NCBI GenBank assembly: GCA_036867785.1
Contig: CP145420.1
Coordinates: 992,001-1,056,000 of the forward strand
Length of the DNA: 64,000 bases
Source of the DNA: Plasmodiophora brassicae
Taxonomy: Eukaryota
Direction: 5' to 3'
The position numbers and the translations under genes are program-made. Shown one piece after another: positions 30,910 through 32,124 of this stretch. The notes below the pieces were generated by a model that worked only from the letters and a program-made list of their open reading frames with translations, was not told where the DNA came from and did no database searches. The first letter of the stretch is position 1, and each line of letters opens with the position of its first letter.

Positions 30910-32124
30910 AGCTCAGACGGCGCCCTGGACGTCCGGCAATCGCTGCAATCGGTCGCGCGCGCCCCTTCCCAGCACCATGCGTCGATGGCGCGGCGGACCG
31001 ACTCAATCGTCGCAACCTCTACGATGGGTGACTCTGGGGAGGGTACTGCGATGTCGTGGTAATTTCGACCGGGGTGGGCGATGTTCGGCGTAACTTCGCA
31101 GGCTTACTGTAGGTATCGATCTGATGGCGGCCTCTGAGCGCGCCAGTCGCCACGCAGAAGCCCTGATCCGAGGTTGTGTCACCGGGTGATCATGGATGAT
31201 TGGCATTGGTCACTTCTATGTACCGGAATCGGAGGTTCGGACGGTCAAATATGAACTACTGGATCTATCCATTAATCGCTATATCGATAGGTTTGATTTC
31301 CCTGGTCGTGTACTGGCTCAGCGGCAGGCAGCACCAGGAACTCTTAAGCACTCTTCAGGCGAATCAGCTGGGCATTCTACATGCGATCCAGCAGTTCAGT
31401 CAGCCGCCGACGTCATCAGATGCGTCGCTGTATCCAGGAATTTCGAACGATCAGGAAATTCTGGATCTATCCGTTTGTCGCTCTATACAGCTGGGCCATA
31501 GAACGATAAATGGATAGATCCAGAATTTCTTGATCGTTCGAAATTCCTGGATACAGCGACGCATCTGATGACGTCGGCGGCTGACTGAACTGCTGGATCG
31601 CATGTAGAATGCCCAGCTGATTCGCCTGAAGAGTGCTTAAGAGTTCCTGGTGCTGCCTGCCGCTGCGCCAGTACACGAGCAGGGAAATCAAAATTATCGA
31701 TATAGCGATTAATGGATAGATCCAGTAGTTCATATTTGACCGTCCGATTCCGGTACATAGAAGTGACCAATGCCAATCCTGCATGGCCACCACTGGAGAC
31801 CGAGGCGCCTGCGTGACAAGCGCGAAACCCAAATGGCCACCACTACCAGCTCAACGCACCTGCGGGCCTCGGTGACACAGCCTCGGATCAGGTCTTCTGC
31901 GAGCTCAGAGGCCGCCATCAGATTGATACCTGCTGTAGACCTGCGAAGTTAAGCCGAACATCGCCCACCCCGGCCGAAATTACCACTACGTCGCGGCAAC
32001 TTCCCCCGAGGCGCCCATCCTACAATCACAGAGGTTGCGACGACTTGAGTCGAGCATGGTGCTGGGAAGGGGCGCGCGCGACCGATTGCAGCGATCGCCG
32101 GACGTCCAGGGCGCCGCCTGAGCT
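30910..32124. repeat. Long inverted repeat IR1 (arms 30910-31486 and 31498-32124, 11-nt loop)
   Basis: The reverse complement of the right arm aligns to the left arm. The inner 290 bp or so are near-perfect and the outer part has indels. Loop is ACAGCTGGGCC. Confidence 0.95.

Follow-up and report, generated by a model that had tools for sequence, protein, structure and literature searches.

The locus described here raises the question of whether a long inverted repeat that carries mirrored small open reading frames (ORFs) matters as an RNA hairpin, as a pair of genes, or simply as a scar in the DNA. This inverted repeat, IR1, lies in a window of 64,000 nucleotides (C11:992001-1056000; C11 is contig CP145420.1) of the Plasmodiophora brassicae genome, which has 25.3 Mb in 20 contigs and short spliceosomal introns; positions below refer to the window unless a contig is named. 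We consider it highly probable that IR1 belongs to the endogenous hairpin-RNA (palindromic) siRNA loci and was formed by inverted duplication; its fold-back transcript would be diced by the Drosha-like RNase III PbDRL into phased 21-mers for AGO proteins.

Anatomy and proposed origin of the fold-back

We identified the following features within and directly beside IR1.

30366..31002, + strand: part of a ~1-kb repeat that is dispersed in the genome (about 30 matches at 74-91%); the stem base (30910-31002) consists of its final ~90 nt
30910..31486, no strand: left arm of IR1, from inverted-repeat comparison
31192..31234, + strand: first exon of a single-TM orphan gene, MDDWHWSLLCTGIG, with homology to the N-terminal part of the annotated protein P0001
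31235..31290, + strand: probable intron of 56 nt, GT..AG, with a TTAAT/CTAAT branch-like motif, holding the ATG at 31251; inferred from the annotated paralog
31291..31517, + strand: exon 2, whose frame crosses the loop and ends at a right-arm stop codon (89 aa in spliced form)
31319..31453, no strand: perfect stem of 135 bp, pairing with 31531-31665
31453..31489, + strand: stem tip, a second and partial copy of the family intron, nearer the C16 paralogs (GAAATTCTGG..CGCTCTAT) than the first copy within IR1
31467..31784, - strand: right-arm gene copy, donor (8-nt deletion) and acceptor lost, frame open (105 aa)
31487..31497, no strand: loop of 11 nt, ACAGCTGGGCC
31498..32124, no strand: right arm of IR1, which repeats the left arm in inverted orientation, with indels
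31792..31869, no strand: insert of 78 nt in the right arm only, partly matching a small dispersed repeat

These arms, spanning 1,215 nt in total, confirm the original prediction of a fold-back with an 11-nt loop, and the perfect pairing predicted for about 135 bp (31319-31453) proved to be the longest perfect run, for which P is about 0.001 given 35 mismatches evenly spread over 540 columns. The description of the whole 1.2 kb as near-perfect holds for the inner 250 nt, which are 97% complementary, but overstates the outer half, where we found 27 mismatches in 290 aligned columns, compared to 8 in 250 in the inner part (p=0.005), and large indels that include the 78-nt insert. Judged from this distribution, the outer arms are older or less homogenised than the inner part. 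When folded, as had been proposed, each strand forms one long stem, with minimum free energies of -1070.5 kcal/mol (+ strand) and -1052.6 kcal/mol (- strand), both for the native sequence alone. The stem tip also repeats an internal motif as predicted, with CTGGATCTATCC present at both 31259 and 31461. The segment 31003-31190 is unique sequence, and the 135-bp stem has no partner with fewer than three mismatches per 21-mer elsewhere in 897 kb of compared loci, nor any in a search of the own genome; an Rfam search of IR1 gave no match.

We rejected an assembly artefact, since 35 substitutions and large indels separate the two arms and a locus of matching length is present in a second isolate. 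A MITE or Foldback transposon was likewise rejected, as the only recurring parts are the ~90-nt repeat end and a ~120-nt gene start; there is no second copy of an IR1 arm in the genome, and the repeat runs on for 540 nt past the left end only. A subtelomeric copy of this ~1-kb repeat sits between a UCH-domain ORF and a 725-aa ORF, the latter without a Pfam match and with motifs that we take, from reading them, to be tyrosine-recombinase-like. The two ORFs flank the repeat in the C20 subtelomere (L031:3620-8256), with near-identical copies of 2-4 kb at other chromosome ends, and this unit is, we presume, possibly a Crypton-like element.

The small ORFs belong to an orphan single-TM family with copies on C16, C14 and C11, at least six of them besides IR1. 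One paralog is the annotated NCBI P. brassicae protein P0001, whose exon 1 is joined to a downstream exon with removal of a 56-nt stretch (GT..AG). In an alignment of eight copies, exon 1 varies at synonymous positions and the 56-nt stretch retains its donor, CTAAT/TTAAT branch-like motif and acceptor, and 31235-31290 in IR1 is on this comparison a probable intron. Both mirrored TM ORFs of the original prediction are present; they run across the loop and share 31467-31517, but the predicted MNYWIYP start (ATG at 31251) falls inside this probable intron, which is spliced out in the annotated paralog. A protein search with the C16 small ORF, among proteins of 40-130 aa, returned one match, the genome's own annotated protein; an IR3 paralog had no match among longer proteins, and the IR1 small ORFs had none in Pfam. 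The small-TM family has also folded back independently, head to head, at C14:48894-49513 (L020), a place that projects onto the published phased locus PHAS21-89/90. Beside it, in a neighbourhood that includes 50597-50656 (L021), lie the miR176 hairpin and a third copy of the family.

This anatomy is consistent with a local inverted duplication, in which ~0.6 kb comprising the repeat end, unique DNA and the small orphan gene would have been copied back onto itself. The turn lies inside the second, partial intron copy, and the C16-type sequence of that copy hints that the template was switched there; the anatomy is observed, and from it we infer the repair mechanism.

Phased siRNA loci and fold-backs in the genome

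The main text of PMC13547706, a paper of 2026, describes 21-nt phased siRNAs, two AGOs and PbDRL, which dices long dsRNA in vitro, and reports neither Dicer nor RNA-dependent RNA polymerase (RdRP) in P. brassicae, stating that the source of the siRNA dsRNA is unknown. Phased siRNAs account there for 5,280 of 78,890 siRNA species, and opposite-strand siRNA pairs with a 2-nt offset are described. In agreement with the published AGO pair, we found two tandem Piwi-domain genes at C12:592510-596413 (L118, L119). Table S6 of that paper lists PHAS21-327 at Ctg_5:583090-584311 (1,222 nt, P=0), and the features relevant to its projection onto the window are as follows.

29027..30337, + strand: upstream neighbour of IR1, a gene with a Gar1/Naf1 domain (PF04410)
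30899..32120, no strand: projected PHAS21-327, ends 11 and 4 nt from the IR1 ends at offset 1,607,210
34026..34926, no strand: fold-back IR2, projection of PHAS21-325/326
39234..41075, no strand: fold-back IR3, projection of PHAS21-323/324
42912..43027, - strand: short hairpin with Pb-miR082 (exact match at 42931-42951), the nearest anchor to IR1

The link between siRNAs and IR1 is a coordinate projection of another isolate's published table, not of reads. Exact genome matches were found for 10/10 published P. brassicae miRNAs tested, two of which, Pb-miR082 (42931-42951) and miR083 (C11:990904-990924), bracket IR1. Five anchors confine the reversed C11 offset to 1,607,176-1,607,236, a range of 60 nt, and the miRNA anchors alone place the start of PHAS21-327 at 30865-30925 and its end at 32086-32146; the offset of 1,607,210 was fine-tuned after the inverted-repeat ends were known, and a shift of +/-200 still leaves 10/13 clusters on fold-backs.

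The small-RNA phasing that had been proposed as a check on IR1 is found, at the level of coordinates, in PHAS21-327, and with it an RNA-level hairpin is supported, though not the argument for selection from G:U pairs considered below. As a long inverted repeat, IR1 can form an extended duplex, to which, by the projection of PHAS21-327, its ~21-nt siRNAs would be confined. It does not resemble a MIRNA gene, as the rows of Table S8 up to miR200 contain no precursor between Ctg_5:572305 and 616193 and Rfam holds no match; the published fold size limit for miRNA precursors was 1000 nt (PMC13547706).

We compared PHAS loci to fold-backs over C11:748001-1258000 (510 kb), where arms of at least 80 nt cover 3.5% of bases, and counted a locus as passing if at least half of it lay in arms. 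By this measure 17/19 projected PHAS loci (11/13 clusters) pass, compared to a maximum of 4/13 in 20,000 random placements and 0-3 after shifts of 1-5 kb. In a replicate on C14, where miR176 set the offset and miR175 and miR165 agreed with it, 16/17 pass, and the remaining locus shares 46% overlap with a 144-bp hairpin, compared to 0-2 of 15-16 after shifts of 1-2 kb; the C14:48894-49513 fold-back, already noticed while this offset was being set, is counted in the C14 total. Elsewhere on C11 there is a jump of about 5.4 kb in the offset, close to a multi-copy element of young age, and after re-anchoring on miR085 and miR088, PHAS21-337 and PHAS21-339 to -341 fall on fold-backs; PHAS21-342 to -345 match fold-backs only with an unanchored shift of -3.2 kb and were counted separately. 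The element itself (C11:751916-757252, L060) has direct terminal repeats of ~200 nt and more than 30 copies at 99-100%, and its insertion is probably polymorphic between isolates, because the offset jump about equals the element length.

Overall, 42/44 of the PHAS loci examined, which are 10% of the 435 listed, overlap a fold-back in projection, and 33/36 do so by the strict test at single offsets. Both ends lie within 15 nt of the inverted-repeat ends in 6/11 of the single loci listed, one with a fitted offset. Among 11 loci split into two calls, the gap between the calls equals the loop length within 14 nt in seven (116/121, 131/133, 76/62, 119/132, 126/130, 126/113 and 154/158), as intramolecular folding would predict and transcription of two strands would not. 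Several counts stand against the hairpin model: PHAS21-336 and -338 have no fold-back at their projected places in this genome, the gap is unlike the loop in 4/11 split loci (320/321, IR2, IR3 and 74/75), and 10/22 long-arm entries of the 510 kb, some of them overlapping, lack the PHAS call seen on the other 12. The phased class is also a small minority of the siRNA species, as given above, and a G:U bias is absent. Reads from near-identical arms also map twice, which may favour fold-backs in the phasing caller. A single hc-siRNA locus (Repeat40, n=1) projected to no arm. Since most of the tested PHAS loci lie in fold-backs and RdRP is reported to be absent, hairpin RNAs are the likely source of dsRNA for the phased class, and we conclude that fold-backs probably supply it in this organism.

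Further fold-backs and duplications surround IR1. Four lie within 12 kb (34026-34926, 39234-41075, 40924-41150 and 42912-43027), the last being a short remnant akin to the IR2 ends. An old duplication of ~8.9 kb, at 79-88% identity, relates 32188-34103 to 41194-42988 and 34880-35233 to 42982-43335; the duplicated AT-rich segment, a possible shared bidirectional promoter, adjoins IR1 directly on its right and IR3 likewise. In the loop of IR3, at 40038-40274, lies a short repeat of very high copy number (contig depth of 1,300-3,000 in DNA run X16), which may explain phased calls that cover this loop. Finally, 38002-38659 is a 95-100% partial copy of a neighbouring gene (43336-43885 and 44307-44423) with the middle absent, adjoining an aquaporin (PF00230) gene at ~37040-37822; the regions compared were 36023-38128 and 43336-44423.

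Transcription, targets and competing explanations

Runs X1, X4 and X6 were taken as RNA, as they contain spliced joints that are absent from X16; their contigs are unstranded. Contigs of all three studies cover the right outer arm at 31843-32063 (depths 8.9, 24.1 and 4.9 in X1, X4 and X6), and those of X1 and X4 the left outer arm (6 and 21 at 31161), compared to depths of 0-4.2 in quiet neighbouring bins (40772-42763), and IR1 transcription is weakly supported by this coverage. The zero depth at 31592 and 31688 is uninformative, as identical arms collapse onto one place. For a single transcript spanning both arms, the unstranded contigs bear on the outer arms only, palindromes being collapsed in assembly. 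RNA contigs from three runs also join 40477 to 31803 with four letters between them (depth up to 348; segments 31792-31869 and 40445-40477), a joint that probably stems from an expressed locus at another place, in which both of these short segments occur.

In the mechanism we propose, a transcript crossing the loop would fold into a stem of ~540 bp, the folding being computed and the crossing presumed. PbDRL would then cut this stem processively into phased 21-nt siRNAs for AGO1/2, an action on IR1 that we infer from the in-vitro dicing of long dsRNA described in PMC13547706. The main target of the IR1 siRNAs would be the gene copy within the locus itself, with the repeat family that contributes the stem base as a possible further target.

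We weighed four other readings of the locus. Very improbable in our assessment is a bimolecular dsRNA, the fold-back being incidental, in which + strand read-through from the Naf1 gene or the repeat meets antisense RNA from a promoter at ~32150-32390, or in which convergent gene copies pair; the neighbours on both sides are transcribed (a contig from 29089 to 30823, and contigs over 32140-33467), the two gene copies face each other, and the opposite-strand pairs with a 2-nt offset in PMC13547706 would fit, though double mapping gives the same picture. It predicts neither the coincidence of PHAS and inverted-repeat ends (6/11 single loci, at most 15 nt, one with a fitted offset) nor the skipping of the loop (7/11), however. 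Least probable of all, we think, is that the locus matters as two expressed micro-protein genes, with its mirrored TM ORFs translated. Both frames are open (89 aa for the spliced left copy, 105 aa for the right), exon 1 varies synonymously across the family and one paralog is annotated at NCBI, yet the ATG originally named lies in a probable intron, the tails beyond the duplicated part are read-through of the loop, Pfam gives no match, and a transcript of either copy would run across the loop into its own antisense.

The remaining two readings concern function. A trans-acting hpRNA of the Drosophila style, selected to repress the small-TM paralogs on C16 and C14, is in our view unlikely, even with arms that derive from a gene family of at least six other copies and a second member (C14:48894-49513) that has folded back independently and is also a PHAS locus. 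Within two mismatches, 77 IR1 21-mers match each C16 paralog, but not one of these lies wholly in exons; with the spliced C16 paralog mRNA as target, the closest antisense 21-mer carries three mismatches (one case) and the others at least four, so that full complementarity to a separate mRNA was not found for this paralog, the close matches involving the intron. The 135-bp stem has no other target in the sequence searched, and we found no signature of selection. Partners with 0-1 mismatches occur only for the repeat end and the insert (897 kb compared), the repeat end having them for 34/55 21-mers in the right arm and 17/73 in the left. As close paralog matches are never fully exonic and the repeat end is rich in partners, self-silencing, and possibly silencing of the repeat family, appears from these matches more likely than control of paralogs.

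We give roughly even chances to the reading of IR1 as a neutral scar of DNA fold-back whose arms stay similar through conversion between them, with any siRNAs as a by-product without a role; this fits the biogenesis proposed above and differs on function only. The outer arms drift by mismatches and indels and identity climbs towards the loop, fold-backs are common in the genome, and no trans target was found. Nor do G:U pairs speak for selected pairing. The original prediction counted five inner-arm transitions, and there are exactly four that are G:U-compatible on the + strand (31290, 31454, 31473 and 31477) and one on the - strand (31481); over the whole of IR1, however, the split is 11 vs 7 (p=0.48). 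Across 15 fold-backs with at least four transitions there is no overdispersion (p=0.17), the sums over 18 fold-backs are 97 vs 100, and the split is 25 vs 18 (p=0.36) in eight hairpins whose miRNA strand is known, so that a strand bias as a sign of selection is not upheld. Tallies of alleles from DNA run X16 were rejected, because palindrome contigs cannot be assigned to arms. Against a neutral scar stand the open frame of the right copy despite the loss of both splice sites, and a locus length that is unchanged in a second isolate, though neither proves selection. A hairpin-RNA siRNA locus remains our preferred account of how IR1 works.

Comparison to known hairpin siRNA systems

IR1 would be a further case of a known class of hairpin-siRNA loci. 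We did not find a link between phased loci and inverted repeats of P. brassicae in the open-access literature, nor in the main text or supplement 2 of PMC13547706, where "inverted repeat" occurs 0 times in the main text and "inverted" or "palindrom" 0 times in supplement 2; the legend of its Fig. 2G describes one palindromic region that makes miRNAs. Among published precursors on Ctg_5 (PMC13547706), IR1 is not listed as a miRNA precursor, and projects instead to PHAS21-327.

A close likeness is to the budding yeast Naumovozyma castellii, which similarly has no RdRP, a non-canonical RNase III and inverted-repeat siRNA loci, and in which palindromic loci are described as the most prolific siRNA source, with 74.1% of siRNA reads in wild type (10.1101/2019.12.12.873604). 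This ascomycete differs in making siRNAs of 22-23 nt via Dcr1, whereas those of the rhizarian P. brassicae are 21 nt, 5'-C-biased and attributed to a Drosha-like enzyme. Drosophila hpRNAs, as characterised in PMC10317233, are likewise long inverted repeats of young-gene or TE fragments, with ~21-nt siRNAs and RNA-seq that is poor over the duplex arms. They are defined, in contrast, by Dcr-2 dependence and de-repressed trans targets, whereas IR1 is known from sequence and projection, and they number from 9 to ~23 loci, compared to 42/44 examined PHAS loci on fold-backs, of 435 listed, in P. brassicae. In Phytophthora, another SAR plant pathogen, pin-IR2758 is an inverted repeat of several hundred nt that gives 21-nt siRNAs and was not classed as MIRNA, but its siRNAs are described as heterogeneous and not phased, and the size classes there were ascribed to diversification of Dcl, Rdr and Ago (PMC3804510), in contrast to the reported lack of Dicer and RdRP in P. 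brassicae. Plant PHAS/TAS loci are defined by a miRNA trigger and a second strand made by RDR6, and on this point RdRP is reported to be absent from P. brassicae (PMC13547706); our own search of the genome for the RdRP family (PF05183) was blank but, having no positive control, does not count as evidence. Given their position on inverted repeats, the phased loci would be better named hairpin-RNA loci than plant-type phasiRNA loci.

A broader possibility, which we put forward tentatively and regard as rather doubtful, is that RdRP has been replaced in P. brassicae by a genome-wide archive of several hundred fold-backs, drawn from orphan gene families and mobile elements, which would give rise to most siRNAs and tune lineage-specific families in an isolate-dependent manner. 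The projected PHAS table in itself offers a concrete answer to the question of the dsRNA source left open in the published account (PMC13547706), and a parallel to the RdRP-less budding yeast in a third eukaryotic supergroup. Loci of the IR1 type would be natural substrates of PbDRL, and are in this respect relevant to RNAi-based control of clubroot.
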